Virus record (IMG/VR): IMGVR_UViG_3300045988_133230
Origin: a virus
Taxonomy: Duplodnaviria > Heunggongvirae > Uroviricota > Caudoviricetes
DNA: 60,892 nucleotides
Direction: 5' to 3' (one strand)
The position numbers and the translations under genes are program-made. Shown in pieces: positions 4,614-45,550 of the stretch; position 1 is the first letter of the stretch, and the number at the start of each line of letters is the position of its first letter. The notes below the pieces were generated by a model, which ran no database searches, was not told where the DNA came from, and was given only the letters and a program-made list of their open reading frames with translations.

Positions 4614-5108
4614 ATGGCTGGAACGGCGGGGCGTTCCGGGCGTCGCCCCAAGCCAACGGCGCGCAAGGCGCTGGCCGGAAACCCCGGCAAGCGAGCCCTG
4701 AATAAAGATGAACCTGTTTTTACGCCCATCAAAGGTGTTGAGCCACCGGAGTGGTTCGCTGAAGAAGATCTCCCTCTCGCCACGATCATGTGGCAACTGA
4801 CAACCAAAGAACTCTGCGGTCAGGGCCTGCTGTGCGTGACTGACCTCGCGGTGCTTGAGCGGTGGTGCGTGGCCTACGAGTTCTGGCGACGTGCCGTGAA
4901 AAATATTGCCATACAGGGCAACACCATCACCGGTGCAATGGGCGGCAGGGTCAAAAATCCGGAGCTGACCGCCAAAAAAGAACAGGAGTCCGAGATGAGC
5001 AGCACGGGGGCAATGCTCGGACTCGACCCCAGCAGCCGCCAGCGTCTGATTGGCCTGGCGGGGCAGAAGAAAGCCACTAACCCGTTTCTGAAAATCATCG
5101 AGTCATGA
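4614..5108 (+). CDS. terminase small subunit (P27-family like)
   Basis: Basic N-terminus [14 protein letters not shown]; AGGAG RBS 9 nt upstream of ATG 4614; overlaps large subunit start. Confidence 0.7.
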
Positions 5109-12148: not shown

Positions 12149-12319
12149 ATGTTTGTCAAACCTGTTAAAGGGCGGTCAGTTCCTGACCCTGCCCGCGGCG
12201 ACCTTTTGCCCGCCGAAGGGCGAAATGTTGACGAGAACAACTACTGGCTGCGCCGTGAAGCAGCGGGTGATATCCGGCGCGTGAATAAAAAGGTGAATAC
12301 CGATGACGATAAGCTTTAA
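12149..12319 (+). CDS. small conserved protein preceding tail sheath
   Basis: 56-aa ORF (MFVKPVKGRSVPDP...) found by me, not in ORF track; GAGGA RBS; overlaps sheath start. Confidence 0.45.
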   Translation: MFVKPVKGRSVPDPARGDLLPAEGRNVDENNYWLRREAAGDIRRVNKKVNTDDDKL

Positions 12320-19839: not shown

Positions 19840-20884
19840 ATTTCAGCGCCCGACGCTGGCAGAAAATATCAGTATGCTCCGTAACGATTTATTCGCCAGG
19901 CTGGACGTCAGCGACACGCTCCGGCGCATGGATGAAGACGTGCGGGCAAAGGTGTATGCGGCGGCGCTGCATACGGTTTACGGTTACATCGATTATCTGG
20001 CAATGAACATGCTGCCTGACCTGTGCGATGAGTCCTGGCTGGCGCGACATGCTGCGATGAAACGGTGTCCGCGCAAGGGGGCCACGGCTGCCAGCGGGTA
20101 TATGCGCTGGGAAGGTGTCAGCGATGGCCTGAAGGTGACCGCCGGGAGTGTTATTCAGCGCGATGACCTGGTTCAGTACACGGCAACTGCCGATGCAACC
20201 AGCGCCGGTGGTGTCCTGCGCGTGCCGATCGCCTGCTCAAGTGCAGGAGCGGTCGGTAACGCTGACGACGGTACGTCATTAATCCTGGTCACGCCGGTGA
20301 ATGGTCTGCCGTCTTCCGGCGTGGCAGACACTCTGACAGGTGGATTTGATACTGAAGAGCTGGAAACGTGGCGCGCCCGCGTCATTGAGCGGTATTACGG
20401 GACGCCTCAGGGCGGGGCTGACGGGGACTATGTAGTCTGGGCTAAAGAAGTGCCCGGCATTACCCGTGCATGGACATACCGCCACTGGATGGGAACGGGG
20501 ACTGTCGGTGTGATGATTGCCAGCAGTGACCTGATTAATCCCATTCCGGAAGAATCAACGGAAACGGCGGCAAGACAACACATTGAGCCACTGGCCCCGG
20601 TGGCAGGCTCTGATTTGTATGTATTCAGGCCGGTGGCGCATAAAGTGGATTTTCATATCCGCGTGACGCCGGACACACCGGAAATACGGGCTGCCATCAC
20701 CGCCGAGTTGCGTTCGTTCCTGCTGCGTGATGGTTATCCGCAGGGAGAACTGAAGGTGTCGCGTATCAGTGAGGCGATTTCCGGTGCGAACGGGGAATAC
20801 AGCCATCAGTTGCTTGCACCGGCGGACAATATCTCCATTGCAAAAAATGAACTGGCGGTACTGGGGACGATTTCATGGACGTGA
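19826..20884 (+). CDS. baseplate J-like protein
   Basis: 352 aa; corresponds to the e14 jayE region. Confidence 0.75.
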
Positions 20885-21459
20885 CAAACGATGATTACAT
20901 CCATCTGTTGTCGGCACTGTTGCCCCCCGGTCCGGCGTGGTCAGCCAGCGATCCGGCGATTGCCGGTGCGGCACCGTCATTAACCCGCGTTCATCAGCGT
21001 GCGGATGCCCTGATGCGGGAGCTGGATCCGCGCACCACCACCGAACTGATAAATCGCTGGGAGCGTCTGTGCGGCCTGCCGGATGAATGTATTCCCGCAG
21101 GGACACAGACCCTTCGCCAGCGTCAGCAACGACTGGATGCGAAGGTTAACCTGGCGGGCGGCATCAATGAGGATTTTTACCTTGCACAGCTTGCTGCCCT
21201 GGGCAGACCAGACGCCACCATCACGCGATACGACAAAAGCACGTTCACCTGCTCATCGGCCTGTACTGACGCGGTGAATGCGCCGGAATGGCGGTATTAC
21301 TGGCAGGTCGACATGCCAGCCGCCACCAACACCACCTGGATGACATGTGGCGATCCCTGTGATTCCGCACTGCGTATCTGGGGCGACACCGTTGTCGAGT
21401 GTGTGCTTAACAAACTCTGCCCGTCGCATACCTACGTAATTTTTAAATATCCGGAGTAA
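20875..21459 (+). CDS. tail protein (YmfQ / Mu gp48-like)
   Basis: 194 aa preceding tail fibre. Confidence 0.65.
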
Positions 21460-21462
21460 TCC

Positions 21463-22047
21463 ATGCATCGTATAGACACGAAAACCGCGCAGAAGGATAA
21501 GTTCGGCGCGGGTAAGAACGGTTTTACCCGTGGTAACCCCCAGACCGGCACACCTGCCACCGATCTGGATGATGACTACTTTGACATGTTGCAGGAGGAA
21601 CTTTGCAGTGTTGTGGAGGCATCCGGTGCCAGCCTGGAGAAGGGGCGGCATGACCAGCTGCTTACAGCGCTTCGTGCGCTGCTGTTAAGCCGCAAGAATC
21701 CGTTTGGCGATATCAAATCGGATGGCACGGTGAAAACGGCTCTCGAAAACCTTGGTTTGGGAGAAGGTGCTAACTGGGTTATGTTACCTGGAGGAATGAT
21801 AATTCAGCGTGTTTATCTTGGATTTCCTATTGGCACTAATGTAAGACATATAACTTTCCCCCGGTCGTTTACAACAACGAACTATTCCATCTCAATTAAC
21901 TGGAATGATATCGGTACTGTAACAACTGAAACACAATCACCAGCAAATGTGGCGGTTGTTCATCAAACAAAATCATTAACAGGGGCCAGCATCTGGCAGG
22001 CAGGTCCCGGGGGATTTAATGTGGACATTATAGCGGTGGGGTATTGA
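21463..22047 (+). CDS. tail fibre protein (constant N-terminus plus variable tip)
   Basis: 194 aa; contains the gix-like crossover site within ENLGLGEGA coding sequence. Confidence 0.7.
21740..21765. promoter_or_regulatory. candidate Hin/Gin-family crossover site (12-2-12)
   Basis: CTCTCGAAAACC-TT-GGTTTGGGAGAA; both half-sites fit the TTxTCxAAAACC pattern of gix/hix sites. Confidence 0.5.
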
Positions 22048-22048
22048 T

Positions 22049-22477
22049 ATGTACGTATGGAGCGCTAAAGCAAATGGCTTTTTCCCCATATCGGAGAAAG
22101 AAAAATTTGAGGCATCAGGTCTGTGGCCTGATGATGGTGTAATAGTCAGTGAGGAAGAACATAAAAAGTTATTTATGGATATTCCACCAGGAAAACAGAT
22201 TGGAACACTGAATGGAAAACCAGCACTGATAGATATTCCTCAGCCGACCAAAAAGGAATTAATAGCTATTGCTGAAGTTAAAAAATCCCAATTACGGGAA
22301 AAGGCTGACAGTGAAATATCCTGGCGTCAGGATGCTGTTGATGCTGATATCGCAACTGATGAAGAAGCTACAACTCTCACCCAATGGAAGAAATACCGTG
22401 TGCTGCTGATGCGTGTTGATACGTCAACAGCACCCGATATTGAATGGCCTACGCCTCCGGCAGTTCAGGCCAGATGA
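22049..22477 (+). CDS. tail fibre assembly protein
   Basis: 142 aa with C-terminal TSTAPDIEWP motif shared with the convergent copy. Confidence 0.7.
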   Translation: MYVWSAKANGFFPISEKEKFEASGLWPDDGVIVSEEEHKKLFMDIPPGKQIGTLNGKPALIDIPQPTKKELIAIAEVKKSQLREKADSEISWRQDAVDADIATDEEATTLTQWKKYRVLLMRVDTSTAPDIEWPTPPAVQAR

Positions 22478-23042
22478 CATCCGGCGCGGTGCTGGTATCT
22501 GTTGCCGTCACCGCGTCAATGTAATCCAGCACGGCGTTAAGTCGGGTTGTTTCTGCCTGAGTCAGTTTCCGTCCGGCCTGTAATTTCAGCTGAATCAGAC
22601 TAATGGAAGCCATTGCTGCATCAATCAGTGACTGGCGCTGTGCTTCTGCCGCGTCTACTGCGGCACTGTGTTGTGCCTCAGTGTCTGTCACCCATTTCTC
22701 ACCATCCCATTTATCGTATGGCGTTAACGGTGAAAGCGTGACATAACCGTCTTTGATGGCACCGATATAATCCACTGTAACAGCTGCACCATTTTCGATT
22801 GAGTAAACAGTCTCATTGCGATGGTCTTCCTCATGGCTCCATCCCTTACCTGTAAATACCGTCACTCTTCCCAGAATGTTTTCGCCCGGGTCAATACCAG
22901 TTGAACAGGCGGGCATACTTACGCCAGTATTAATATATTCATCAGACCAGCCCGTATACTCAGATGTTTCAGCATCATAATAAAAACAACGCATATCGCC
23001 CGGCACTGTAGCCAGCCCATTTTCATCAAAAACAGGTTTCAT
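22449..23042 (-). CDS. tail fibre assembly protein (alternative, inverted orientation)
   Basis: 197 aa, C-terminal TSTAPDVIWPELP; convergent with 22049-22477. Confidence 0.7.
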   Translation of the reverse strand: MKPVFDENGLATVPGDMRCFYYDAETSEYTGWSDEYINTGVSMPACSTGIDPGENILGRVTVFTGKGWSHEEDHRNETVYSIENGAAVTVDYIGAIKDGYVTLSPLTPYDKWDGEKWVTDTEAQHSAAVDAAEAQRQSLIDAAMASISLIQLKLQAGRKLTQAETTRLNAVLDYIDAVTATDTSTAPDVIWPELPEA

Positions 23043-24784: not shown

Positions 24785-25600
24785 TCACATACGGATAAAA
24801 TTTTTTCTATTGATTTTGTCTCTATCAGAGCCATAAATGATGGTTGCAAAAAAACGACCTAATTCAAGATGGTGGAAGTGATTATCTTTTGCTTGAACTG
24901 TCATTGAGTCTAATATGTTATAGATGCATTCTATGATATGAATAACTAATAAAGTGCGATAACCAGCAAGCATTTCACTTCTTTTAAGTAAATAATTTAA
25001 ATCCCCTGCAGAGTTTATATGGTTTCTGTCTTCATCATAATATCCAAGCACATAGCATGGCAGTGTTTCACCATAGCTTCGGTATTGCTCGCATTTTTTA
25101 TCAATTATATTTTTTTGTCTTTTTGTTAATATTTTATCGTAAATGCTCTTATCGATTTCATTATACCATTGCTTCATGGGATCATTGTCGTTGTCATTAG
25201 TAATGAAATCAATATTACTATATCTTGATGAATTTGCAAAATTAGTTAACAACTCCATCACTCTGTAGTGAATTTCATTTAAGCCAGAGGGAGAATCAAC
25301 TCTCTCAATGACTAGGTTGAATAACTTGCTTAAGTTATGACCGTAATCTCTTAATTTTTTGCGTGATGTATATTTTCCATTTTTATTATAATCATCAAGC
25401 ATAAGGCAAAGTTTCATAAGCCTTTCTAATCCTAAACTGATGCCGGATAATGCTTGAAAATACAATCCTCTACTTGCAAAATTTGCTTTCCTTAGGGAAG
25501 TGAGCCCTATGCCTAATAATTGTCTTGAAAAGTCAACCTCATCAACAAATCTTCTGTATTTTTCATCCATAAAAACCTCAGTCAGCCAATTAATATTCAA
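24785..25600 (-). CDS. hypothetical 271-aa protein (cargo, possible abortive-infection type)
   Basis: AT-rich ORF lying between the two 122-bp direct repeats; no recognisable motif. Confidence 0.55.
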   Translation of the reverse strand: MNINWLTEVFMDEKYRRFVDEVDFSRQLLGIGLTSLRKANFASRGLYFQALSGISLGLERLMKLCLMLDDYNKNGKYTSRKKLRDYGHNLSKLFNLVIERVDSPSGLNEIHYRVMELLTNFANSSRYSNIDFITNDNDNDPMKQWYNEIDKSIYDKILTKRQKNIIDKKCEQYRSYGETLPCYVLGYYDEDRNHINSAGDLNYLLKRSEMLAGYRTLLVIHIIECIYNILDSMTVQAKDNHFHHLELGRFFATIIYGSDRDKINRKNFIRM

Positions 25601-27764: not shown

Positions 27765-28907
27765 CTATGCTGTTTTGATATCTACGATAATCCAGTCTTT
27801 ACCACGATCATCATTGTATCGGTCGGTCATTTTTCTGGATTTATGGCCTAACAACTTTTGCGTATCCAGACCCTGTTCCCGATATAACCGTTCTGACAGA
27901 GATCGCTGCTCATGAAATGTGGGCGCAGTTCCTTGCTCCCATTTTATGCCACATTTTTCCCTGGCCTTTTTAAAAGCCGTTGTCAGAGTATTCGCAGAAA
28001 CCTGGTCTCCTCTGTTTGCTTGAGAGGTTGTGTGACGGTAATGGACCAGATATTTACTAACAACAGCATCCCTGCACTGAGATATAACTTCACGAAGGGT
28101 AATATTCAGAGCATCGCATTTCAGGTTAAGCGGAATAGCAAGTTTTGAACCGGTTTTTTCCTGAGTAATGTGCAACATGTCGTCCCAGATATCAGAGAAT
28201 TTCAAATTGCAGATATCGCCTAAACGTTGTCCAGTGACAAGAGCAAGTAGCATCCCACATTTTAAATAGGGCTGCCGTCTGCTTACGCTGTCAAATATTG
28301 CCTGCCATTCGGGCAGTGATAATCTTTGGCGGTTTACTCGATTTCGCGGTTGTTTTGTTGCCTGCGCTGGGTTAAATCCTGGCGGAACATGTCCTGCGTG
28401 TTGTGCTTCTTTGAAGACGTCGATTAACACCATTCTCACGACTTGCGCCATCCTGTTATGACCTTCAGCCTTTACAGCATCAATTATTTCGGCAATATCA
28501 AGTGCGGTAATATCCTTGAGGTGTTGCATTCCACAATGCTCACGGAAAAGACGAATGGGTTTGCCTTTTTGCCGATAGGAGTTGGGTCTTAGTTCATTAT
28601 GTTGCAGCCTGTCCTCCTGGATAGAAATATATTTATCAAGCCATTCTGTCACCGTAATGTCTGAGCGCCTGCCTTTCATTCTTTCCAGACGCTCATTGAC
28701 GCTTAATATTTGTCGGGTACGTTGTTCAGCAATAATGATATTTGCTTCAGTAGCAACTTGTTTTGCTTCATTCTCATCAGTTCCTAAGCTATGAAAACGA
28801 CCGGATAGTGGATGTTTGTATTGCCAATATACCTTTCCGGTTCGCTTATCTAATTTGCAATATAAATTGGGTATAGAGATTTTGTGAGATCGGGGTCTAG
28901 CAGCCAT
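27765..28907 (-). CDS. int: tyrosine integrase (e14 IntE-like, icd-targeting)
   Basis: 380 aa with C-terminal R...HxxR...Y catalytic region (LLGHKSRKMTDRY); adjacent to icd fragment. Confidence 0.9.
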   Translation of the reverse strand: MAARPRSHKISIPNLYCKLDKRTGKVYWQYKHPLSGRFHSLGTDENEAKQVATEANIIIAEQRTRQILSVNERLERMKGRRSDITVTEWLDKYISIQEDRLQHNELRPNSYRQKGKPIRLFREHCGMQHLKDITALDIAEIIDAVKAEGHNRMAQVVRMVLIDVFKEAQHAGHVPPGFNPAQATKQPRNRVNRQRLSLPEWQAIFDSVSRRQPYLKCGMLLALVTGQRLGDICNLKFSDIWDDMLHITQEKTGSKLAIPLNLKCDALNITLREVISQCRDAVVSKYLVHYRHTTSQANRGDQVSANTLTTAFKKAREKCGIKWEQGTAPTFHEQRSLSERLYREQGLDTQKLLGHKSRKMTDRYNDDRGKDWIIVDIKTA

Positions 28908-33965: not shown

Positions 33966-34658
33966 TTATCCATGTTTCCTGTACGTCTGGGGCATGCTCC
34001 CAATAACCTTACCGAAGATGAACACCCGGTTCATCTCGTCTTTCTCGATCGGGTCCCACGGTGAGTAGCTCTTGTTATCAGAGATAACCAGCAGCTTATC
34101 CTTCATCATTTGCAGGCGCTTTACATGGGCGGTGTCGTCGTACAGAAACGCATAGATGCCATCACCGTCGAAAGATTTAACCGTGATATCAACGAACAGA
34201 AGATCACCAGGTTCAATCGTTCCTGACATGCTGTCACCGCGTACGTTAATGATGCGGATATTTTCTGCCTTCCTACCATCGAACATGTGACGAGCATCGT
34301 CAAACGAGTACTCAACCGAGCGTAGAACTTCTACAAACTCACGGTTGATGACTCCCGGCCCGGCACTCACTTCTATATCAAGAACGTCAATCTTGAAGTA
34401 TTTGGGATGGTTGGCAGTAGGCTTCCCTAATTGTTGACCGTCATTTCTCATCGGGCCTATGCCTGATGAGAGCCACTCTGTTCGAACACCCAATGCATTA
34501 GCTATTTCAACAATTTTTGTTGAGCCGCGCGCGTTGCCGCTTGTCAGTCTCCAGATTGTGGGTTGAGCTACGCCAGACGCCTTTGCAAGAGCGCCTTGAG
34601 ACATTCCAGATTGTTCCATCGCTAGGTTTAAGCGATCAGCAAGAGTTTCTTTTTTCAT
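33966..34658 (-). CDS. cI: CI-type repressor (HTH plus S24 LexA-like peptidase domain)
   Basis: HTH (QGALAKASGVAQPTIWRL), Ser-Lys dyad (GDSM...K); start placed at ATG 34658 (ORF track TTG at 34694). Confidence 0.85.
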   Translation of the reverse strand: MKKETLADRLNLAMEQSGMSQGALAKASGVAQPTIWRLTSGNARGSTKIVEIANALGVRTEWLSSGIGPMRNDGQQLGKPTANHPKYFKIDVLDIEVSAGPGVINREFVEVLRSVEYSFDDARHMFDGRKAENIRIINVRGDSMSGTIEPGDLLFVDITVKSFDGDGIYAFLYDDTAHVKRLQMMKDKLLVISDNKSYSPWDPIEKDEMNRVFIFGKVIGSMPQTYRKHG

Positions 34659-34768
34659 AAGTTTTAATTTATACGCTTGCGTATTGATGGTCAAAACACG
34701 TTTTGCTATTGCTGTGATTAATACGCATTGCTATTATTTATTCATTGTAATACCAATAGGAATTAATA
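34659..34768. promoter_or_regulatory. OR / pRM-pR divergent control region
   Basis: 14-bp perfect palindrome ATACGCTTGCGTAT (34671-34684) and GCTATT(G) repeats at 34705 and 34730 between divergent cI and cro. Confidence 0.6.
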
Positions 34769-34996
34769 ATGACAAATCAAACCATTCAACTCGCAATCAG
34801 TATTACAGGTAGTCAAAAACGACTGGCAGATCTATGCGGTGTAGCCCAGCCCACTGTTTGGCGTTGGCTACACGGTGGCGGAATTGATGCCCGCTATGTA
34901 ATGAAAATTGTCTCAGCCACTGGTGGAAAGATTAAACCAGCAGATATTCGTCCCGACCTCGCACCATTGTTTAACGCGAGTAATTCTGCCGCCTAA
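34769..34996 (+). CDS. cro: Cro-type HTH regulator
   Basis: 75 aa, HTH, divergent from cI. Confidence 0.75.
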   Translation: MTNQTIQLAISITGSQKRLADLCGVAQPTVWRWLHGGGIDARYVMKIVSATGGKIKPADIRPDLAPLFNASNSAA

Positions 34997-35020
34997 TCTG
35001 CGGCGTTAACTGATAAGGCA

Positions 35021-35566
35021 ATGACTATGCAACCACTTACATACCAACAGACTAGCGGATTTAGCCCGACTGCGGTGATAAATCGTTCTCAAACAAAACA
35101 GGCGCCAGGCCACGAAAAAATCCGTGATGCCGTTCGCGCCTGGTCGGCTGCAGATAATCAGGATGTTGTTGCCGCACTCATTGTGAATGAGTATCGGGAG
35201 CAGGGCGGCGGCACCATCGATTTCCCTGATGATGTCAGCCGTGCACGCCAGAAGCTGTTCCGCTTCCTCGATAACAAATTCGATTCTGAAAAATACCGAA
35301 ATAACGTGCGTGAACTGACCCCGGCAATTCTGGCGGTACTACCGCTGGAATATCGCGGCCACCTGGTTGAGCAGGATAGCTTCATGGCTCGGCTGGCTGA
35401 AATGGAAAAGGAACTCAGTGAGGCAAAACAGGCTGTCATTCTCAACGCACCACGCCACCAGAAACTGAAGGAGATGAGTGAAGGCATTGTGTCGATGTTT
35501 CGTGTGGACCCGGATCTGGCTGGTCCACTGATGGCGATGGTCACCACCATGCTGGGGGCAATATGA
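35021..35566 (+). CDS. regulatory protein in cII position (181 aa)
   Basis: Gene order cro - this ORF - O; longer than lambda cII. Confidence 0.5.
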   Translation: MTMQPLTYQQTSGFSPTAVINRSQTKQAPGHEKIRDAVRAWSAADNQDVVAALIVNEYREQGGGTIDFPDDVSRARQKLFRFLDNKFDSEKYRNNVRELTPAILAVLPLEYRGHLVEQDSFMARLAEMEKELSEAKQAVILNAPRHQKLKEMSEGIVSMFRVDPDLAGPLMAMVTTMLGAI

Positions 35567-35652
35567 CAGGTTCGGAAATGGCGAAAGCCGGTCTGCGCGA
35601 ACAGAACCGACTTTCAGGTGCAAATCGTAACACACTCATTGCGGGAGGAATT

Positions 35653-36582
35653 ATGGCAAACACTGCTGAGATATTCAATTTTCCAGTGCCGGATGTGGCA
35701 CAAAAGGAGCCGCGCGTGGCAGATCTCGATGATGGTTATACGCGCATTGCAAATGAGTTGCTGGAAGCTGTGATGCTGGCCGGATTAACACAGCACCAGC
35801 TTCTGGTCTTCCTGGCTGTCATGCGCAAAACATATGGCTTTAATAAAAAACTGGATTGGGTGAGCAACGAGCAACTTTCCGAGTTGACCGGGATATTGCC
35901 GCACAAGTGTTCTGCTGCAAAAAGTGTTCTGATAAAGCGTGGGATTTTTATTCAGAGCGGGCGGAATATCGGCATTAATAATGTGGTCAGTGAATGGTCA
36001 ACATTACCCGAATCAGGTAAGAAAAATAAAGTTTACCTGAAAGAGGTAAATTTACCTGAATCAGGTAAGAAAAGTTTACCCAAATCAGGTAAAGACGTTT
36101 ACCCGAATCAGGTAAACACAAAAGACAAACTAACAAAAGACAATATAAAACCTTTTTCGTCCGAGAATTCTGGCGAATCCTCTGACCAGCCAGAAAACGA
36201 TCTTCCTGTGGTGAAACCGGATGCTGCAATTCAGAGCGGCAGCAAGTGGGGGACAGCAGAAGACCTGACCGCCGCAGAGTGGATGTTTGACATGGTGAAG
36301 ACCATCGCGCCATCAGCCAGAAAACCGAATTTTGCAGGGTGGGCTAACGATATCCGCCTGATGCGTGAACGTGACGGACGTAACCACCGCGACATGTGTG
36401 TACTGTTCCGCTGGGCATGCCAGGACAACTTCTGGTCCGGTAACGTGCTAAGTCCGGCCAAACTCCGCGACAAGTGGACCCAACTCGAAATCAACCGTAA
36501 CAAGCAACAGGCTGGCGTGACAGCCGGAAAATCAAAACTCGACCTGACAAACACTGACTGGATTTATGGGGTGGATTTATGA
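35653..36582 (+). CDS. O: replication initiator O
   Basis: MANTAEIFNF...ADLDDGY resembles lambda O N-terminus; contains iterons; upstream in-frame ATG at 35563 possible. Confidence 0.8.
   Translation: MANTAEIFNFPVPDVAQKEPRVADLDDGYTRIANELLEAVMLAGLTQHQLLVFLAVMRKTYGFNKKLDWVSNEQLSELTGILPHKCSAAKSVLIKRGIFIQSGRNIGINNVVSEWSTLPESGKKNKVYLKEVNLPESGKKSLPKSGKDVYPNQVNTKDKLTKDNIKPFSSENSGESSDQPENDLPVVKPDAAIQSGSKWGTAEDLTAAEWMFDMVKTIAPSARKPNFAGWANDIRLMRERDGRNHRDMCVLFRWACQDNFWSGNVLSPAKLRDKWTQLEINRNKQQAGVTAGKSKLDLTNTDWIYGVDL
36004..36115. repeat. origin iterons (four TTACCCGAATCAGGTAA-type 17-mers plus one degenerate) within O
   Basis: Copies at 36004, 36052, 36076, 36099 (degenerate 36032), followed by an A-rich tract. 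Confidence 0.8.
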
Positions 36583-37280
36583 AAAACATCGCCGCACAGA
36601 TGGTTAACTTTGACCGTGAGCAGATGTGCCGGATCGCCAATAACATGCCGGAACAGTACGACGAAAAGCCGCAGGTACAGCAGGTAGCGCAGATCATCAA
36701 CGGTGTGTTCAGCCAGTTACTGGCAACTTTCCCGGCGAGTCTGGCTAACCGGGACCAGAACGAACTGAACGAAATCCGCCGCCAGTGGGTTCTGGCTTTC
36801 CGGGAAAACGGGATCACCACAATGGAACAGGTTAACGCAGGAATGCGCGTAGCCCGTCGGCAGAATCGACCATTCCTGCCATCACCCGGGCAGTTTGTTG
36901 CCTGGTGTCGGGAAGAAGCATCCGTTACCGCCGGGCTGCCAAACGCCAGCGAGCTGGTTGATATGGTTTACGAGTATTGCCGGAAGCGTGGCCTTTATCC
37001 GGATGCAGAGTCTTATCCATGGAAATCAAACGCGCATTACTGGTTGGTTACCAACCTGTATCAGAACATGCGAGCCAATGCGCTGACTGACGCGGAATTA
37101 CGGCGCAAGGCTGCCGATGAACTGACCTGTATGACAGCGCGAATTAACCGTGGTGAGGCTATACCTGAACCAGTAAAACAAATTCCTGTCATGGGCGGTA
37201 GACCTCTAAATCGTGCACAGGCTCTGGCGAAGATCGCAGAAATCAAAGCTAAGTTTGGGCTGAAAGGAGCAAGAGTATGA
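36579..37280 (+). CDS. P: replication protein P (DnaB loader)
   Basis: 233 aa, near-identical to lambda P as recalled. Confidence 0.9.
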   Translation: MKNIAAQMVNFDREQMCRIANNMPEQYDEKPQVQQVAQIINGVFSQLLATFPASLANRDQNELNEIRRQWVLAFRENGITTMEQVNAGMRVARRQNRPFLPSPGQFVAWCREEASVTAGLPNASELVDMVYEYCRKRGLYPDAESYPWKSNAHYWLVTNLYQNMRANALTDAELRRKAADELTCMTARINRGEAIPEPVKQIPVMGGRPLNRAQALAKIAEIKAKFGLKGARV

Positions 37281-37579
37281 CGGGCAAAGAGGCAATTATT
37301 CATTACCTGGGGACTCATAAGAACTTCTGTGCGCAGGACGTTGCCGCGGTAACAGGCGCAACCGTAACCAGCATAAATCAGGCTGCGGCTAAAATGGCGC
37401 GGGCAGGAATCCTGGTCGTTGATGGTAAGGTCTGGCGAACGGTGTATTATCGGTTCGCTACCAGAGAAGAACGGGAAGGAAAGGTGAGCGCGAATTTGAT
37501 TTTTAAGGAGTGTCGCCAGAGTGCCGCGATGAAACGGGTATTGAGGGTATATAAAAGAACATCAATGGGTACACAATGA
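37277..37579 (+). CDS. ren: Ren
   Basis: MTGKEAIIHYLGTH... matches lambda Ren. Confidence 0.8.
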   Translation: MTGKEAIIHYLGTHKNFCAQDVAAVTGATVTSINQAAAKMARAGILVVDGKVWRTVYYRFATREEREGKVSANLIFKECRQSAAMKRVLRVYKRTSMGTQ

Positions 37580-37646
37580 TGAAACAGGTGAGTTGAGTTC
37601 AAACTGTAGTACAATTCTCTCCAGTTTGAACAGGAAAGAATATGCT

Positions 37647-37979
37647 ATGAACCCTTATATTTATCTTGGTGGTGCAATACTTGCAGAGGTCATTGGTACA
37701 ACCTTAATGAAGTTTTCAGAAGGTTTTACACGGTTATGGCCATCTGTTGGTACAATTATTTGTTATTGTGCATCATTCTGGTTATTAGCTCAGACGCTGG
37801 CTTATATACCTACAGGGATTGCTTATGCTATCTGGTCAGGAGTCGGTATTGTCCTGATTAGCATACTATCATGGGGATTTTTCGGCCAACGGTTGGACCT
37901 GCCAGCCATTATAGGCATGATGTTGATTTGTGCCGGTGTGTTGGTTATTAATTTATTGTCACGAAGCACACCACATTAA
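37647..37979 (+). CDS. emrE: small multidrug resistance efflux protein EmrE
   Basis: 110 aa MNPYIYLGGAILAEVIGTTLMKFSEGF... matches EmrE (a DLP12 prophage gene in K-12); start at internal ATG 37647. Confidence 0.9.
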   Translation: MNPYIYLGGAILAEVIGTTLMKFSEGFTRLWPSVGTIICYCASFWLLAQTLAYIPTGIAYAIWSGVGIVLISILSWGFFGQRLDLPAIIGMMLICAGVLVINLLSRSTPH

Positions 37980-38234
37980 AAATAATTTATTTTTAAACGA
38001 CTAAAATATGGAGGTTCGTATATTTGTATGGGCCTCGTTTTATGCTTTTTGTTAATGTCTTTAGTTTTTATTCATTCTTTTGAACTTTCAAGATTATGGT
38101 GTAAGAAAATTGCAATACGATTATTGTTGTATATTCAAGATAATGTGACCTTAATTGTCTTTTTAAATAAAAATTAAACAAAAATCATATCTCACCACTA
38201 AGGTTTATAAAAGCATACTTTAGCAGGTGTCACC

Positions 38235-39761
38235 ATGAAAAAAGCCATAGCATATATGCGATTTTCATCACCAGGTCAGATGTCTGGTGATTCATTAAAC
38301 CGCCAGAGAAGGCTTATTACTGAATGGCTAAAGGTAAATAGTGATTATTACCTTGATACCGTAACGTATGAAGATTTGGGGTTAAGCGCATTCAATGGAA
38401 AGCATGCACAATCAGGAGCTTTTTCGGAATTTTTAGATGCTATAGAACATGGTTACATATTGCCAGGGACTACATTGTTAGTTGAAAGTCTGGACAGACT
38501 TTCAAGAGAAAAAGTCGGTGAAGCGATTGAGCGTCTGAAATTGATTTTGAATCACGGTATTGATGTTATAACTCTTTGCGATAATACAGTCTATAATATA
38601 GACTCATTGAATGAGCCATATTCATTAATAAAAGCCATACTTATAGCACAAAGGGCAAATGAAGAAAGCGAGATAAAGTCAAGTCGGGTTAAATTATCAT
38701 GGAAGAAAAAACGGCAGGATGCACTGGAATCAGGCACGATTATGACGGCGTCTTGTCCGAGATGGCTCTCATTGGATGACAAAAGAACAGCTTTTATTCC
38801 AGACCCCGACAGGGTGAAAACGATTGAGCTAATTTTTAAACTCAGGATGGAAAGGCGATCATTGAATGCAATAGCTAAGTATTTAAATGATCATGCTGTA
38901 AAAAATTTTTCAGGAAAAGAAAGTGCATGGGGGCCTTCTGTAATTGAAAAATTATTAGCGAATAAAGCTCTGATAGGTATATGCGTACCTTCATATCGTG
39001 CAAGAGGGAAAGGGATAAGTGAAATCGCTGGCTATTATCCCAGAGTCATATCAGATGATTTGTTTTACGCTGTACAGGAAATTCGGTTGGCACCTTTTGG
39101 TATTAGCAATAGTAGCAAGAATCCTATGCTAATAAATCTACTTCGAACAGTTATGAAGTGTGAGGCTTGTGGTAATACCATGATTGTTCATGCGGTATCT
39201 GGACGTTTGCATGGCTATTATGTTTGTCCGATGAGAAGATTACATCGATGTGACAGGCCATCAATAAAAAGAGATTTGGTTGATTATAATATCATTAATG
39301 AATTGCTTTTTAATTGTAGCAAAATTCAACCAGTTGAAAACAAGAAAGATGCTAATGAAACTTTAGAGTTAAAAATTATTGAGCTTCAGATGAAAATTAA
39401 TAATTTAATCGTTGCATTGTCTGTCGCGCCTGAAGTTACCGCTATAGCAGAGAAAATAAGACTATTAGATAAGGAATTACGAAGGGCTTCGGTATCATTA
39501 AAAACTTTGAAGAGTAAAGGGGTGAGTTCACTTGGTGATTTTCATGCTATTGATTTAACTAGTAAAAATGGGCGAGAGCTATGTCGTACACTTGCCTATA
39601 AAATATTCGAAAAAATTATAATTAATACAGATAATAAAACCTGTGATATCTATTTTATGAATGGCATTGTTTTTAAACACTATCCTTTAATGAAAGTAAT
39701 ATCCGCCCAGCAGGCGATAAGCACTCTTAAATATATGGTTGATGGTGAGATTTATTTTTGA
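38235..39761 (+). CDS. ybcK: large serine recombinase (YbcK-like)
   Basis: Resolvase N-terminal catalytic region (YMRFSSPGQ...SLDRLSR), Cys-rich zinc ribbon; AT-rich. Confidence 0.75.
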   Translation: MKKAIAYMRFSSPGQMSGDSLNRQRRLITEWLKVNSDYYLDTVTYEDLGLSAFNGKHAQSGAFSEFLDAIEHGYILPGTTLLVESLDRLSREKVGEAIERLKLILNHGIDVITLCDNTVYNIDSLNEPYSLIKAILIAQRANEESEIKSSRVKLSWKKKRQDALESGTIMTASCPRWLSLDDKRTAFIPDPDRVKTIELIFKLRMERRSLNAIAKYLNDHAVKNFSGKESAWGPSVIEKLLANKALIGICVPSYRARGKGISEIAGYYPRVISDDLFYAVQEIRLAPFGISNSSKNPMLINLLRTVMKCEACGNTMIVHAVSGRLHGYYVCPMRRLHRCDRPSIKRDLVDYNIINELLFNCSKIQPVENKKDANETLELKIIELQMKINNLIVALSVAPEVTAIAEKIRLLDKELRRASVSLKTLKSKGVSSLGDFHAIDLTSKNGRELCRTLAYKIFEKIIINTDNKTCDIYFMNGIVFKHYPLMKVISAQQAISTLKYMVDGEIYF

Positions 39762-40110
39762 GTAATAATCACTTTTTCAACCGTGCTATGGTATGAAAGT
39801 AAAGTAACTACTATGATATTAACTATCTTGAACGAAGCGCCCTGAGCTATAGTTTTACTATAGGCACTGCCACTGGATGTTGGCATTCTCGCTCTAGTAG
39901 CTCAACAATACCCAATCACAAAACAATTCACTGATAACAAACTTTGTGCACGTGCTTAGTTATGGCGAACAGGTGATGTTAACCTCCTGCCAGAATGCCA
40001 CTCCACTTCATTAAGTATCTGAGCACCGAGAGGCTGGTCACGCCCCCATTAAAAATAATTTCTTTTGAATCGAGTGAAATAGGTTAGCCCGCATAAGTGC
40101 GGGCTGCTTT

Positions 40111-41154
40111 TTACAGGTCAGCGTTTGTTTTTTGTTGTTGGGTAGCGGTTTTTATGGGGGTTCCCAGGTTTTTAGTAAACCACTCAACAACTCTGTTTAT
40201 AATAATTGGCTGATACCATGTATTATCACCATGCTCAGCCCCTTCTACCAGAACGTACTCAGCGTTATCGCCGTTCTTCTTCAACATCCTGAATAGTTTG
40301 GCGCTTTGCTCAGGTGAAACCAGAGTGTCTTTGCTACCATGCATAATAAGAAATGGGGGTTTTACTCCTTTCATATGTCCGATTGGACTGGCGTTTAGCG
40401 CTTTTTCTTTTGACGCTGTGATGGGGGCTCCCGCAAAATTTCTGAATGCAGGGCCATTGATCATTAAGGCTTCGGTTACGGCAGGAGAGCGATGAACCTC
40501 CTGCACTGATTCAGGGAACCCCTCGCCAATATTCAACAAGTCAGAAATCCCATAAAGTGTGGCAACTGCCTGAACATCTGAGGATTGCTGAAGAAAGTCA
40601 CCTTTATCAAAGGTTTTGTCACCATTTGTAGTTCCCATCATCTGAGCAAGCCATCCACCGGCAGAGTCACCCAGAACTCCGATTCTTTGAGGATCAATCC
40701 CATAATTGCTGGCATGCTCTCTCAGGTAACGTATTGCAGCTTTTCCATCCTCAACTGGTGCTGGAAATGTATCAGGAATTGTTCTGTATTCTACAGCGGC
40801 CACAACAAAACCAGCTTCTGCCAGAGCCATTCTCATTTCAATAAATTTGTCATGTTCAGAAGACATGAATCCGCCGCCGGGATAATAAATAATGGCTGGT
40901 TTTAAATCATTTGTTCGCGGGACAAGAACTGACATGTGAAGCTGTCTGACAGAACGAGTTCCTTTTATCTGGGAATAAACAACATCACCAATGAGATCGA
41001 CCTGGTTTCTGGTCGGTGAAACACTAATGATATCTGCACCCGGGGTGTAACCAGGAAGATTAGTCTGGACAGGTGTTGCACAACTCCCGACCGACATGGC
41101 CATTGACATACCATACAATAGTGTTGCAGATGATAATATCTTGTTAATTTTCAT
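40111..41154 (-). CDS. alpha/beta-hydrolase esterase/lipase, predicted lipoprotein
   Basis: Signal peptide ending VGSC, oxyanion motif YPGGGF, nucleophile elbow GDSAGG. Confidence 0.7.
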   Translation of the reverse strand: MKINKILSSATLLYGMSMAMSVGSCATPVQTNLPGYTPGADIISVSPTRNQVDLIGDVVYSQIKGTRSVRQLHMSVLVPRTNDLKPAIIYYPGGGFMSSEHDKFIEMRMALAEAGFVVAAVEYRTIPDTFPAPVEDGKAAIRYLREHASNYGIDPQRIGVLGDSAGGWLAQMMGTTNGDKTFDKGDFLQQSSDVQAVATLYGISDLLNIGEGFPESVQEVHRSPAVTEALMINGPAFRNFAGAPITASKEKALNASPIGHMKGVKPPFLIMHGSKDTLVSPEQSAKLFRMLKKNGDNAEYVLVEGAEHGDNTWYQPIIINRVVEWFTKNLGTPIKTATQQQKTNADL

Positions 41155-41601
41155 GTTTTACATGCCTTGACTTATCGGATGAAATTCTCTTACTGAATTT
41201 AACGGCAGTTTAATAGCCGTACAACTCGTGGTAGCCAGGGAAATATCCCAGTCGTGGTTAAGGTTGTACTTGACGGCTATTATTTCAACAATGCTTAAAG
41301 TGAGAGCTTAAGGTTATGCGTATGTTTTACAGTCCGAGTAGATTCTGACCAATAGCTTCTTTGTATAATTCTGTCAGAAATAAATCTTGGCTTGCATGAA
41401 GTTTGAGACCTTATCTTGTTTGATTATGAATAATCAATTCGCCATAATTGTATCACCGGAGCCTGAACAACTCCGGTGACTTCTGCGCTAAACGGGGACG
41501 TTTATGCGCACACACAATCCAAACTCTCTTCTCCCTTCACAGATGCAGAAATGCACCTGCGTTTTTTTGCATCCAGCGTCTGACCTCTGTGGAGGTGAAG
41601 C

Positions 41602-42057
41602 GTGAACCTACCACAAGATGGCATCAAACTGCATCGCGGTAACTTCATCGCTATCGGCCAGCAGATCCAGCCTTATCTGGAGAACGGAAAATGCTTTCGC
41701 ATGGTGCTTAAACCGTGGCGTGAGAAACGCAGTCTTTCCCAGAATGCACTCAGCCACATGTGGTACAGCGAAATCAGTGAATACCTCATCAGCAGGGGGA
41801 AATCGTTCGCTACCGCAGCATGGGTAAAAGATGCTCTCAAACACACATACCTCGGTTATGAAACCAAGGACCTGGTTGATGTCGTAACCGGCGAAATCAC
41901 TACTATCCAGTCGTTACGCCATACCTCCGATCTCGATACCGGAGAGATGTATGTCTTCCTGTGTAAGGTTGAAGCCTGGGCGGTGAATATTGGCTGCCAC
42001 CTGACTATTCCGCAGAGCTGCGAGTTCCAGCTGCTGCGCGACAAGCCGGAGGCGTAA
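41602..42057 (+). CDS. ybcN: YbcN-like nin-region protein
   Basis: 151 aa in nin region upstream of ninE. Confidence 0.6.
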
Positions 42058-42228
42058 TGGCTACACCGCTTATTCGTGTCATGAACGGACACATCTACAG
42101 AGTACCAAATCGTCGTAAGCGTAAGCCTGAGCTGAAACCATCCGAAATACCAACACTGCTCGGATATACCGCCAGCCTGGTTGATAAAAAATGGTTGCGA
42201 CTGGCAGCAAGGAGGAATCATGGCTGAT
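42058..42228 (+). CDS. ninE: NinE
   Basis: 56-aa [27 protein letters not shown]... found by me (below ORF-track size cutoff). Confidence 0.6.
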
Positions 42229-42510
42229 TTGAGAAAAGCAGCACGTGGTCGGGAATGCCAGGTAAGAATCCCTGGCGTATGTAATGGCAATCCTGAAACG
42301 TCAGTACTGGCACATATCCGGCTGGCTGGATTGTGCGGCACCGGTATTAAACCGCCAGACCTTATTGCCACCATTGCATGTTCTGACTGTCACGACGAGA
42401 TCGACCGTCGCACGCATTTTGTTGACGCTGGATATGCAAAAGAATGCGCGCTGGAAGGTATGGCGAGAACGCAGGTTATCTGGCTGAAAGAGGGGGTAAT
42501 TAAGGCGTGA
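42220..42510 (+). CDS. ybcO: YbcO-like Cys-rich nin-region protein
   Basis: 96 aa from ATG 42220; Cys/His cluster. Confidence 0.65.
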
Positions 42511-42869
42511 ATACTTACCATATCACACTACCCTGGCCGCCGAGCAATAATCGCTATTACCGCCATAATCGTGGGCGCACGCACGTCAGCGCAGAGGGGC
42601 AAGCATACCGCGATAATGTCGCCCGAATCATTAAAAACGCAATGCTGGATATCGGCCTGGCTATTCCTGTGAAAATCAGCATTGAGTGCCACATGCCGGA
42701 TCGCCGTCGCCGTGACCTTGATAATCTGCAAAAGGCCGCTTTTGACGCACTCACCAAAGCAGGTTTCTGGCTGGATGATGCTCAGGTCGTTGATTACCGC
42801 GTTGTGAAGATGCCCGTTACCAAAGGTGGGAAGCTGGAGCTGACCATCACCGAAATGGGGAATGAATGA
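42507..42869 (+). CDS. rusA: Holliday junction resolvase RusA
   Basis: 120 aa [18 protein letters not shown]... Confidence 0.9.
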
Positions 42870-43006
42870 TATTTGAGTTTTATATGGCAGAACGTCTTCG
42901 CCACCGCTGGATGCGCCTGCGCTTATATCGTTTTCCTGGTTCTGTTTTGGCCGATTACCGGATACTGAAGAATTACGCCAAAACACTGAAAGGAGCATGT
43001 GTATGA
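42866..43006 (+). CDS. ylcG: YlcG-like small protein
   Basis: 46-aa ORF overlapping rusA stop (ATGA). Confidence 0.45.
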
Positions 43007-43091
43007 AGTCAGAGATAACAATCGACTAATACTGTTTTGTTGATTTTTGCTTGTAATTGGCGTTCTGGCCTAATTTTTGTGGAGTAAGTTG

Positions 43092-43475
43092 ATGCGTGAT
43101 GTTCAGATGGTTCTTGAGCGTTGGGGGGCGTGGGCAGCTAATAATCATGAAGATGTGACCTGGTCGTCCATTGCTGCCGGTTTTAAGGGATTAATTCCTT
43201 CAAAAGTAAAATCTCGCCCGCAATGTTGTGACGATGACGCGATGATCATTTGCGGGTGCATGGCCCGTCTGAAAAAGAACAACAGCGATTTACACGATTT
43301 ATTAGTAGATTATTATGTATGTGGTATGACATTCATGTCACTGGCAAGTAAGCATTGCTGCTCGGATGGTTATATCGGGAAAAGGTTACAGAAGGCTGAG
43401 GGCATAATTGAAGGGATGTTAATGGCATTAGATATCCGGTTAGATATGGATATCGTTGCTAATAATTCTAATTGA
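43092..43475 (+). CDS. Q: late antiterminator Q (QuuD-like)
   Basis: 127 aa from ATG 43092 with GGAG RBS; Cys-rich zinc-binding region. Confidence 0.85.
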
Positions 43476-43612
43476 TATGCAATTGTTTACTAAAAGTTAT
43501 TAAAAATGGGGCGTGGAAACGCCCCCAAAATAAAGGGTAATATATAACAGAAGGTTTATATAGTAAGAAGCAAGGTAGTGCTTCTAAAGGAAGTGGCTTG
43601 AGGGCTCCACTT

Positions 43613-43655
43613 ATATGTTGCGGAGGCAAAGCCTCCCGCAACATATCTTTTTCGT
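43613..43655 (+). terminator. intrinsic terminator downstream of Q
   Basis: TGTTGCGGAGGC-AAA-GCCTCCCGCAACA hairpin followed by TATCTTTTTCG. Confidence 0.6.
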
Positions 43656-43663
43656 AAGTCAGA

Positions 43664-44746
43664 TTAGAACTGATAAACCAGACCTACAGCGACGATGTCG
43701 TCGGTATCAATACCAGCTGTTTTGGTAAACTTACTATCGTCAATTAAGTTGATTTTGTAATCAACAAAAGTGGACATGTTTTTATTAAAGTAGTAAGTAG
43801 CACCGACATCGACATACTTGACTAAGTCTCGGTCACCATGAACACCAAGGTCTTTACCTTTTGACTGAAGGTAAGCAACAGATGGGCGCAGACCGAAGTC
43901 AAACTGATATTGTGCTACTGCTTCAAAGTTTTGTGCTTTGTTTGCAATATGGTTATTACCAAAAACGGTCATATTCTGAGTTTCAGAATATGTGGTAGCC
44001 AGATAGATATTGTTCGCATCATATTTCAGGCCTGCAGCCCATACTTCCGCATTTTTGCCGGAGGCATTGAATTTGCTCTTACCATAGGCGACCTGACCGT
44101 CAGTGCGATCTGATTTAGCATAGGTTGCACCCACGCCGAATCCTTCATACTCATAAGTAGTGGAGAAACCGAAACCATCACCATTGGCTTCAGTTACGTC
44201 AGTGCGGTCATTTTTACCCTGATACTGAGCAGCAAAGTTCAGGCCATCGACCAGACCAAAGAAGTCGTTGTTACGATAAGTTGCAACACCAGTAGTGCGA
44301 CCAGTCATGAACACATCTGTTTGGGTCCAGGTATCACCACCGAATTCTGGCAGAACGTCAGTCCACGCACCGATGTCGTATGCTACACCGTAGTTACGGC
44401 CGTAATCGATTGAGCCGTAATCACCAAATTTCAGGCCTGCAAATGCAAGACGGGTTTTGTCTTTGGAAGAACCTTGAGATTCAGCACGGTTGCCTTTGAA
44501 TTCATATTCCCACTGACCGAAACCAGTCAGTTGATCGTTGATTTGGGTTTCACCTTTGAAGCCAAGACGGGCATAAGTAGTATCACCATCATCTGCATCA
44601 TTAGAGGAGAAGTAGTGCTTGGCATTAACTTTCCCGTATAGATCCAGCTTGTTACTGTCTTTATTATAAATTTCAGCTGCCTGAGCAGACATCGCCATCA
44701 GTACTGATGCAGCTACAGCAGAAATTGCCACTGTTAATTTTTTCAT
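43664..44746 (-). CDS. outer-membrane porin (OmpC/NmpC/Lc family)
   Basis: Signal peptide [23 protein letters not shown], beta-barrel porin sequence ending ...GLVYQF; start at ATG 44746. Confidence 0.85.
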
Positions 44747-45117
44747 TGTACGCCCTTTTTTTGAACTATTATTAAAAAATGATGTCACTGCGCGATAAAT
44801 ATTCATCTAATCAATGTGATTATTTCAAGATGTAAGTTTTAGTTTCTCATTTAATTTGTGAAGTAGATCTCTATTTTTATCTGAACCTTTTCTATCTAAT
44901 CCTATTCATGGCTCTTGTTTGAACGAAAATAAATCTATTAGCTAATTTATATTAATGGCACTTATTTATAAGCGCTCTATAATTCTTTAGCTTAATTTAA
45001 ACAAACTAAAAATAACATCGGAAATTATTCATTGGTTATTTGTTGAAGTTTTCTTATGTATTTGTGGTGGTGTTTTGAACACTCGGTGGCATTCTCACAA
45101 ATATCATTTAGTAGTTT

Positions 45118-45206
45118 ACGTACGTAAAAAATTGGTTATGCTGTTAAGAGTGGTTACTTCGTCACACAGCTTAAACCCGCCGTCGAGCGGGTTTTTCCAT
45201 TTTTTG
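45118..45206 (+). promoter_or_regulatory. late-operon leader (pR'/qut-like) with tR' hairpin 45173-45206
   Basis: Near-identical to 1996-2076; hairpin followed by T-run. Confidence 0.65.
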
Positions 45207-45334
45207 AGTCTCGATATTAGCTGATAACCCAATACCTGAGTTATTCACTGACTCCGAATCTGTTACGTTTCTGCCTTTATTGCGATACGTAGTATCCCCT
45301 TAATTTACACCCGCTTTGTCTGCGAGGTGGGGTT

Positions 45335-45550
45335 ATGAAATCCATGGATAAGTTAACAACGGGTGTCGCCTATGGTACCTCAGCAGGTAGTGCCGGGTAC
45401 TGGTTTTTACAGTTGCTCGATAAAGTCACGCCCTCACAGTGGGCGGCAATAGGTGTGCTGGGTAGTCTGGTATTTGGCTTGCTGACGTATCTGACAAACC
45501 TTTATTTCAAGATTAAAGAAGATAAGCGTAAGGCTGCGAGAGGTGAATAA
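45335..45550 (+). CDS. pinholin (phage 21 S-type) with dual start
   Basis: 71 aa [26 protein letters not shown]...; Met1 and Met4 starts. Confidence 0.85.

Follow-up and report, generated by a model that had tools for sequence, protein, structure and literature searches.

Why would a lambdoid prophage that already has a tyrosine integrase carry a second, independent recombinase in the middle of its nin region? The question is raised by IMG/VR virus record IMGVR_UViG_3300045988_133230, a 60,892-nucleotide stretch of Caudoviricetes DNA (the whole of which we call the window), in which ybcK, a gene for a large serine recombinase (LSR), lies between ren and ybcN together with emrE and a convergent esterase gene. 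A sequence-only reading had described 37593–41160 as a low-GC stretch encoding an EmrE efflux pump, a 508-amino-acid LSR, and a convergent secreted esterase, and had suggested that it was either a nested or fossil mobile element or a recombinase-based regulatory switch. All of these genes are present, and the LSR is indeed a second, independent recombinase, with a lambda-type Int/Xis pair in the same prophage and the YbcK residues intact. To that list we add ylcJ, a fragment of an antirepressor gene (39869–40043), a 38-nt direct repeat, and the true extent of the slot that holds these genes (37579 to ~41418). From the comparisons below, the block is probably a mosaic cargo ("moron") island in the ren–ninB slot of a Perceval/DLP12-type lambdoid prophage, with no discrete mobile element, and the best-supported view of YbcK is that of an orphan LSR that does not integrate this prophage.

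The block is already known, since it is annotated both in phage Perceval and in the cryptic prophage DLP12 of Escherichia coli K-12. Perceval (prophage 2 of the adherent-invasive E. coli strain LF82; OV696612, genus Bievrevirus) is 98.7% identical over window 33967–45537, and from 27485 to the end of the window the identity is 97.5–98.8% over most of the length. Its gene order is the same, RenD–EmrE–LSR–alpha/beta hydrolase (convergent)–Orf/NinB–NinE–YbcO–RusA–Q–porin, with the record labels RenD, EmrE, "Large serine recombinase, DLP12 YbcK homolog," alpha-beta hydrolase, and Orf(NinB), and it too has a tyrosine Int/Xis. Perceval and its siblings 4A7, Lambda_4C10, D2, 1W, and 3W are viable, virion-forming phages, and these sibling coliphages carry a 99.8% identical YbcK. 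Unlike Perceval, from which it has diverged by a few per cent of nucleotides, the window prophage has the late genes of another prophage immediately upstream of it. DLP12 has renD–emrE–ylcJ–ybcK–ybcL–ybcM–ybcN in the same slot, before ybcN–ninE–ybcO–rusA–quuD, and its ren–emrE–ylcJ–ybcK unit is ~96% identical in nucleotides, with 98% amino acid identity in YbcK. It differs in having ybcL–ybcM to the right of ybcK in place of the antirepressor remnant, emrE tail, and esterase, and in being defective, ridden with insertion sequences, and located at argU rather than icd. The block is accessory, and many relatives lack it.

The variable slot begins directly after the ren stop codon (37579) and ends where homology with the backbone of related loci (L016, L018, L006, L007, L004, and L005; comparison loci carry L numbers throughout) resumes at 41419 (Table 1). 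It runs from 37580 to ~41418, about 3.8 kb, and is wider than the block first described. Its GC content is 0.387 (0.382 in emrE, 0.348 in ylcJ–ybcK, and 0.443 in the hydrolase gene) against 0.50–0.51 in the O–P–ren and ybcN–rusA backbone. The cargo in this slot is swapped among relatives: L018 has two small hypothetical genes on the same backbone; L020 has a DUF4041 gene, an antirepressor gene, and a hypothetical gene; L019 has a hypothetical gene, an antirepressor gene, and a HEPN gene; L003 has an inverse autotransporter gene and the same esterase gene without emrE or ybcK; L005 has emrE directly followed by the esterase gene; L016 (E. coli strain 108, O157-type arrangement) has emrE–ylcJ–ybcK alone; and L006 has emrE–ylcJ–ybcK followed by a truncated antirepressor gene (ant′) and BstA. 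Because emrE occurs without ybcK, the esterase gene without emrE or ybcK, and ylcJ–ybcK with at least six different right neighbors, the block is a composite of cassettes. It has the other marks of a moron as well, namely presence in some prophages and absence from others, a GC content of 0.35–0.44 against 0.50, transcription in the LF82 lysogen, and hairpin-bounded units. A promoter scan of the block did no better than on shuffled sequence, and Rfam gave no match in the region at E ≤0.1 and none in the whole window at gathering score.

Lambdoid morons between ren and ninB in the nin region, e.g., BstA of BTP1-type prophages, are likewise independently transcribed low-GC genes swapped at a fixed position, and an LSR is an unusual moron in comparison with them. 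In L006, L019, and L020, BstA, a HEPN pair, and a DUF4041 protein gene flank a conserved gene for a 202-amino-acid Bro-N/P22AR-C antirepressor-like protein, and the ren–ybcN slot of related E. coli prophages behaves like a hot spot for phage defense and cargo genes. Although BstA, HEPN, DUF4041, and SIR2 genes are found at this position in relatives, we rejected a defense-system assignment for the present block because none of the six proteins tested matched a PADLOC defense model. An integron-like capture of cargo by YbcK was also rejected, because the cargo varies at the same edges in phages that lack ybcK and because the junctions between ybcK and its cargo differ between architectures.

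How often the cassettes travel together can be read from 5426 complete E. coli genomes. emrE is present in 3698 of them, and emrE–ylcJ–ybcK in 1399 (roughly a quarter), while the exact 4.3-kb arrangement of the window is held over at least 80% of its length by 172. The other ~2300 genomes that match emrE have a copy ~92% identical and no ybcK; they are probably of the fliE–yedK type, of which we looked at a single example, L002 6002–8248 in E. coli ZH142, a prophage remnant with emrE–ybcL–ybcM and no ybcK, whose homology to the window begins at ~37570–37578. Next after ybcM in that remnant come 95 nt from the quuD 3′ end, and LF82 holds both emrE copies, the fliE type and the Perceval type. 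The emrE cassette is thus seen joined to ybcL–ybcM (L002), to the esterase gene (L005), or to ylcJ–ybcK. Among 80 IMG/VR loci with an E. coli-type ybcK, every one with enough left flank (76/76) reads ren>emrE>ylcJ>ybcK, and to the right of ybcK there are at least six architectures. The direct emrE–esterase junction, which we call B type and which has one copy of the 38-nt repeat, occurs in L005 and Rb-50 (2 of the 5426 genomes) and in four IMG/VR contigs. B-type phages have two different left backbones, and the type is ~3% diverged, which argues that the B type is a real parental type and not simply a recent deletion product.

The junction that is peculiar to the window is marked by the 38-nt direct repeat, whose two copies are 84% identical, lie 2073 bp apart, and bracket ylcJ–ybcK–ant′. 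The search for repeats at the block edges that the sequence-only reading had proposed thus had a divided outcome, with none found around the whole block and this one found around part of it. Each copy begins in the final emrE codons and includes an AT-rich palindrome. The left copy is the ylcJ-type version, common to K-12, L006, and L007, and the right copy is the version of L005, whose single copy (5001–5038) aligns to both window copies. Antirepressor homology stops exactly where the right copy begins, and the resulting junction of ant′ with the emrE tail is identical in 14 IMG/VR contigs, which are all of the window-type loci. We read the repeat best as the scar of a single illegitimate or unequal recombination rather than as a pair of att sites, a reading that draws on the comparisons with L005, K-12, L002, and L016, on the B-type contigs, and on a much longer repeat in the prophage L187 described below.

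According to this model, recombination among related phages would have brought together three independently circulating cassettes: emrE and the 29-nt tail that belongs to it; ylcJ–ybcK, which would once have displaced the 5′ half of the resident antirepressor gene; and the convergent lipoprotein esterase gene with a bidirectional terminator. The window arrangement would have arisen once, when an A-type phage (ren–emrE–ylcJ–ybcK–ant′) became joined illegitimately, at a point within its ant remnant, to the final few bases of emrE from a B-type phage (ren–emrE–esterase), an event of which the 38-bp repeat would be the scar. Homologous recombination would soon remove any longer emrE duplication, so that only short tails would survive. 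The ant′ fragment, which was identified by blastn to genes with a P22AR C-terminal domain and by translation and alignment with L006, L007, L019, and L020, is a relic of the antirepressor gene resident in the slot. In L016, the antirepressor remnant is internally deleted at a TATC microhomology (7417/7418), ~5 nt from the point at which K-12 and the window diverge (window 39827 vs. ~39833), and the spot after ybcK could be prone to recombination.

YbcK itself has what an LSR is expected to have: a catalytic domain, then a recombinase domain, and a four-Cys zinc ribbon with a coiled coil (Pfam Resolvase 8.2e-19, Recombinase 2.3e-14, and Zn_ribbon_recom 4.6e-8). Across 23 homologues the alignment is invariant at Y7, R9, the nucleophile S11, Q15, E144, and C309/C312/C331/C339, and likewise in the VESLDRLSR motif (84–91; E84-SLDRLSR-R91); the catalytic serine, whose loss would have spoken against a functional recombinase, is therefore conserved. 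A single-sequence PDB search with YbcK gave nothing, and the matches came with a profile search, to the A118 integrase (4kis, 2.6e-16), the catalytic domain of the TP901-1 integrase (3bvp, 2.7e-5), and PhiC31 Int (4e-3), with profile positions 260–474 aligned to the A118 C-terminal region, embedded coiled coil included. Between E. coli alleles, dN/dS (the ratio of nonsynonymous to synonymous divergence) is 0.06–0.08 at a dS of 0.12–0.18. Judged from these residues and ratios, YbcK is under strong purifying selection and is catalytically intact, not a decaying relic. The small upstream open reading frame fares differently: ylcJ carries a frameshift or truncation in L006, L007, and L016, although of these three only L007 also has a frameshifted ybcK and the other two have that gene intact.

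The integrases of A118/LI, TP901-1, and PhiC31 share this architecture (catalytic Ser domain, recombinase domain, and zinc ribbon with coiled coil), but each is the sole integrase of its phage and is encoded next to attP, at the edge of the prophage, whereas ybcK lies in the nin region of a prophage that has a tyrosine Int. The tyrosine integrase gene marks the left end of the prophage, and ybcK is ~9.3 kb away from it. Int/Xis are also annotated in near-identical prophage records, and from gene content and position in these prophages we infer that integration and excision are carried out by the lambda-type Int/Xis. Comparisons across the homologue loci gave no attP-like conserved site flanking ybcK. 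Nothing in the DNA points to YbcK acting on this block, and we infer that ybcK belongs to a line of prophage recombinase genes that stand alone and whose products work in trans on some pair of sites.

The gene is expressed. In K-12 the ybcK leader contains a Rho/NusG-dependent terminator (PMC4150792), and RNA sequencing (RNA-seq) of LF82 shows emrE, the LSR gene, and the hydrolase gene transcribed in the lysogen with O and P at background (PMC9928086 supplementary tables); the differential-expression table of the same study marks the recombinase as up-regulated. Expression of ybcK is low, and Rho attenuates it in the leader. Overexpression or deletion of ybcK alters sabinene tolerance (PMC7181518). 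In the literature on ybcK and on LSRs of lambdoid phages, we found no published recombination assay of YbcK and no DNA target for it.

Outside E. coli, where we read homologue loci with flanks of up to 10 kb, full-length YbcK homologues (36–61% identity) are spread across the Enterobacterales as solitary genes, and neither emrE nor ylcJ stands beside any of them. Those in nin regions, after O/P, include Pantoea L012, whose prophage has a tyrosine integrase as well, Atlantibacter L023, L187, and L188. Others lie just past tail-fiber or assembly genes (Atlantibacter L008, Yersinia L010 and L106, Erwinia L013, Ewingella L015/L025/L026, and Pantoea L032), most of these at a visible prophage–host junction, and a few are on plasmids. 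At L008 11530–12432 the homologue is 540 nt from the ssrA 3′ end, in Erwinia L013 it adjoins lepA, and other junction neighbors are nrfA and an aldehyde dehydrogenase gene. In L008, L013, L015, and L106 the homologue is the last prophage gene and is transcribed toward the host junction, the position expected of an integrase, and a location at the prophage edge would suit an integrase role there. Labels from the marker-based annotation of 23 genome loci were sparse. Between Atlantibacter L023 and L008, homologous DNA extends only from 68 nt upstream of the start codon to the stop codon, so the mobile unit is the gene, without a conserved flanking site. In L187, an Atlantibacter-like lambdoid prophage, a 59% identical homologue and two cargo genes (KGG and DinI) lie between direct repeats (9623–9851/12603–12831) of 181–229 nt and 82–86% identity that derive from the 5′ end of the neighboring DUF1367 gene; the repeat is absent from L023, which is 90% identical. 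This repeat is far too long for a serine recombinase site and is what unequal recombination of mosaic phages should leave behind. A truncated 81-amino-acid DUF1367 copy lies upstream in L187, and there is a SIR2-domain gene in the same nin region. In L043, RepP-like matches on either side of the recombinase gene looked like a split target gene, a reading that we rejected since the two cover the same part of P and are two separate genes.

Could ylcJ–ybcK(–ant′) nevertheless be a cassette that YbcK inserted into the AT-rich palindrome at the emrE stop codon, with the 38-bp repeats as attL and attR and the emrE–esterase phages as empty sites or excision products? For the whole of 37593–41160 as one nested or fossil unit the answer is no, since it consists of three separate cassettes with no bounding repeats; for the ylcJ–ybcK subsegment there is something to be said, though we regard it as distinctly unlikely. 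A direct repeat does flank a recombinase gene that is intact and under selection; the single-copy, insert-free relatives (the two genomes and four viral contigs of B type) look like empty sites, although unequal recombination predicts the same; and K-12 and the fliE locus make up a second pair with and without the segment, in which an 11-mer of the emrE tail recurs at the right edge of the K-12 segment (P ~0.008 by shuffling). Several points weigh against the scar model that we prefer. Both the window and K-12 architectures have a fragment of emrE tail to the right of the ybcK segment, for which that model needs survivorship (the K-12 11-mer could be explained by the loss of longer emrE duplications through homologous recombination); the joint GGTCAC/GCCCC/CATTAA has no clean microhomology and leaves ~5 nt without an explained origin; ybcK in sampled E. 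coli is never away from emrE, which a site-specific model explains more directly; and no YbcK target was found for the proposed action in trans. Against att sites, the two independent architectures have no conserved ends in common: to the right, the supposed insertions finish in unrelated sequence (window ...GGTCACGCCCC vs. K-12 ...GAATGGTAGG), and the fliE-type tail lacks the palindrome, of which K-12 has a degraded version. The repeat copies, moreover, are still 76% alike well past any plausible crossover, which fits diverged homologous emrE tails and not P′/B′ arms. Loci of other genera share no more than the gene itself, from 10–68 nt upstream to the stop codon, with no conserved flanks; the repeat on either side of the L187 homologue is too long to be an att site; and the B-type phages are diverged and on different backbones. 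A nested cassette predicts the deletion junction GCACACCACATTAAAAATAATTTCTTTTGAATCGAG and the circle junction GTCACGCCCCCATTAAAAATAATTTATTTTTAAACGAC; the latter had 0 matches in IMG/VR and JGI metagenome contigs, a weak negative as circles are rarely assembled, whereas the occupied junction was matched 14 times. Tn4451 (TnpX) and Tn5397 (TndX) likewise combine an LSR with resistance-type cargo and short direct repeats and have a deletion form, but their ends are conserved and joined at a GA dinucleotide and they form circles, whereas the ends of ylcJ–ybcK are not conserved and no circle junction was found.

Several rival views concern what YbcK does. One is that it is a secondary integrase or trans-acting recombinase with a defined role, such as use of an alternative attB, exclusion of an incoming phage, or host rearrangement. 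The strong purifying selection, the transcription in the lysogen and up-regulated flag in LF82, the homologues at ssrA, lepA, and nrfA where an integrase would sit, the defense-like neighbors in relatives (BstA, HEPN, DUF4041, and SIR2), and the stress phenotype of the ybcK knockout or overexpression all suit it, and yet every sampled E. coli ybcK is in the emrE context of the nin region and never at a prophage end, there is no attP-like conserved flank, and PADLOC is silent; a role defined in this way seems to us unlikely on balance. It is quite improbable, in our estimate, that YbcK-type enzymes are a distinct class of solitary LSRs, selected as single-gene moron cargo of Enterobacterales prophages and acting in trans, whether by mobilizing the 2-kb ylcJ–ybcK segment into the emrE tail or by acting on DNA of the host or of an incoming phage, which would be a new kind of lysogenic-conversion or exclusion function, both of which we name as possibilities. 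That ybcK is a dead integrase gene carried passively with emrE would agree with its Rho silencing in K-12 and with frameshifted alleles such as that of L007, and is nonetheless very improbable given the low dN/dS, the retention of all catalytic and zinc residues, the full-length homologues across the Enterobacterales, and a 90%-identity cluster of full-length proteins with 6144 members. We reject, and give almost no credence to, the regulatory switch that the sequence-only reading had offered, in which YbcK would flip a segment carrying, e.g., a promoter for emrE, the esterase gene, or the porin gene. Besides the palindromic core of the direct repeat, its one candidate is a 16-nt inverted match (38336–38351/39762–39777), which we rejected as switch arms because K-12 does not conserve the pair and one of its arms is coding DNA of ybcK. 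Noncoding DNA of the block has no inverted repeat of at least 22 nt, the two pairs that do have an arm in the block (I7 and I9) fall inside the emrE and ybcK coding sequences, and no inverted repeat is conserved. Among the genomes with near-full-length matches (172 for the whole block and 1399 for emrE–ybcK), each full-length match listed is one collinear piece and none is inverted.

Table 1. Positions in the window of the ren–ybcN slot, its cassettes, and the genes that frame it
Feature	Position	Strand	Evidence or remark
Lambda-type tyrosine integrase gene, primary integrase	27765..28907	-	Pfam Arm-DNA-bind_1 1e-28, Phage_integrase 8.9e-24
ren-like gene, last backbone gene	37277..37579	+	PHROG 142 Ren-like exclusion protein 2.6e-41
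emrE cassette: leader, coding sequence, 29-nt AT-rich tail	37580..38008	+	GC 0.382
emrE coding sequence, 110 amino acids	37647..37979	+	NCBIfam SMR_efflux_EmrE
Left repeat copy: last emrE codons, stop, tail	37971..38008	+	Contains 21-bp AT palindrome TTAAAAATAATTTATTTTTAA
ybcK leader	38009..38234	+	Holds terminator-like hairpin and ylcJ
Terminator-like hairpin in ybcK leader	38011-38036		Overlaps ylcJ start codon
ylcJ, 49-amino-acid open reading frame	38028-38177	+	Pfam YlcJ 1.6e-29
ybcK, 508-amino-acid LSR	38235..39761	+	Pfam Resolvase, Recombinase, and Zn_ribbon_recom
3′ flank travelling with ybcK in E. coli	39762..39868	+	Kept to ~39827-39833 in all architectures
Decayed antirepressor fragment (ant′), P22AR-C/Bro-N-like	39869..40043	+	In-frame stops, frameshift
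Right repeat copy: putative emrE 3′ tail of B-type parent	40044..40081	+	One mismatch to L005 single copy
GC-rich hairpin, predicted bidirectional terminator between ybcK segment and esterase gene	40085..40106	.	9 pairs, 6 GC, then T run
Predicted lipoprotein alpha/beta-hydrolase gene, 347 amino acids	40111..41154	-	Convergent with ybcK
Esterase cassette upstream region, right slot edge	41155..41418	-	Backbone homology back at 41419
ybcN (NinB/Orf family), first backbone gene right of slot	41602..42057	+	PHROG 72 NinB/Orf 1.2e-50; NCBIfam PRK09741 271 bits

The two genes that accompany ybcK are well-defined members of their families. At 37593, the emrE start first proposed, stands a TTG that lengthens the emrE frame on its upstream side. 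The 110-amino-acid protein has four transmembrane helices and the essential Glu14 (E14), scores 239.2 bits against NCBIfam NF042984 (SMR_efflux_EmrE), with a cutoff of 226, and matches Pfam Multi_Drug_Res at 2.7e-35, all as expected of an SMR/EmrE protein. The hydrolase matches Pfam BD-FAE (5.5e-45; 153.9 bits, cutoff 26.8), as well as Abhydrolase_3, and PHROG 3341 esterase (1.3e-129), and no NCBIfam equivalog reaches its cutoff for it. It has GDSAG at residue 162 (nucleophile elbow) and PGGGF at 92 (oxyanion hole), and its N terminus, MKINKILSSATLLYGMSMAMSVGS/C (...MSVGS/C), fits the lipobox pattern of the PROSITE PS51257 rule. With the fold, GxSxG, GGG motif, and lipobox of a BD-FAE or hormone-sensitive-lipase-like esterase, "lipoprotein esterase" seems a reasonable label for it. 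On the basis of the published RNA-seq on the 98.7% identical LF82 block, emrE and the esterase gene are lysogenic-conversion genes.

Elsewhere in the window, 1–23042 holds the late genes of a different prophage, so that two prophages are nearly back to back. These late genes include TerL (5105–6838), tail sheath (12303–13799), Mu Gp48-like (20875–21459), and tail fiber (21463–22047) genes, followed by a tail-fiber assembly gene (22449–23042, minus strand) in opposite orientation, which resembles the frozen half of an invertible tail-fiber segment without an adjacent invertase gene. A direct repeat of ~110 nt (24590–24695/25761–25867; 99–100% identity, spacing 1171 nt), the reverse complement of which resembles a tRNA 3′ end (GGTTCAAATCC...GCCGACCA) and then a terminator, flanks an open reading frame without a Pfam match (24785–25600, minus strand) and looks like the att-type scars of a small integrated element; in the whole window, ARAGORN found no intact tRNA. 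Another direct repeat, of 77 nt (88% identity; 1997–2073/45119–45195), has copies 43 kb apart, closes with a GC hairpin followed by a T run, and has no Rfam match. Its second copy is upstream of an nmpC/ompC-like porin gene (43664–44806, minus strand), and it could be a regulatory or terminator module shared by two porin-type cargo cassettes. Within the O-like replication gene, four copies of a 22-nt repeat (TTACCCGAATCAGGTAAGAAAA) at 36004–36120 resemble lambda-type ori iterons.

What is new here, in a block that K-12 and Perceval annotation had already recorded, is its dissection into three cassettes, the reading of its repeat as a recombination scar, and the recognition of ybcK as a conserved, expressed gene. 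If YbcK were after all to mobilize the ylcJ–ybcK segment into the emrE tail, that segment would be the smallest LSR-driven element, riding inside phages. A DNA target for ybcK would fill a small, long-standing gap in the annotation of K-12, and it could show why phages that have an integrase keep a second, unrelated recombinase.

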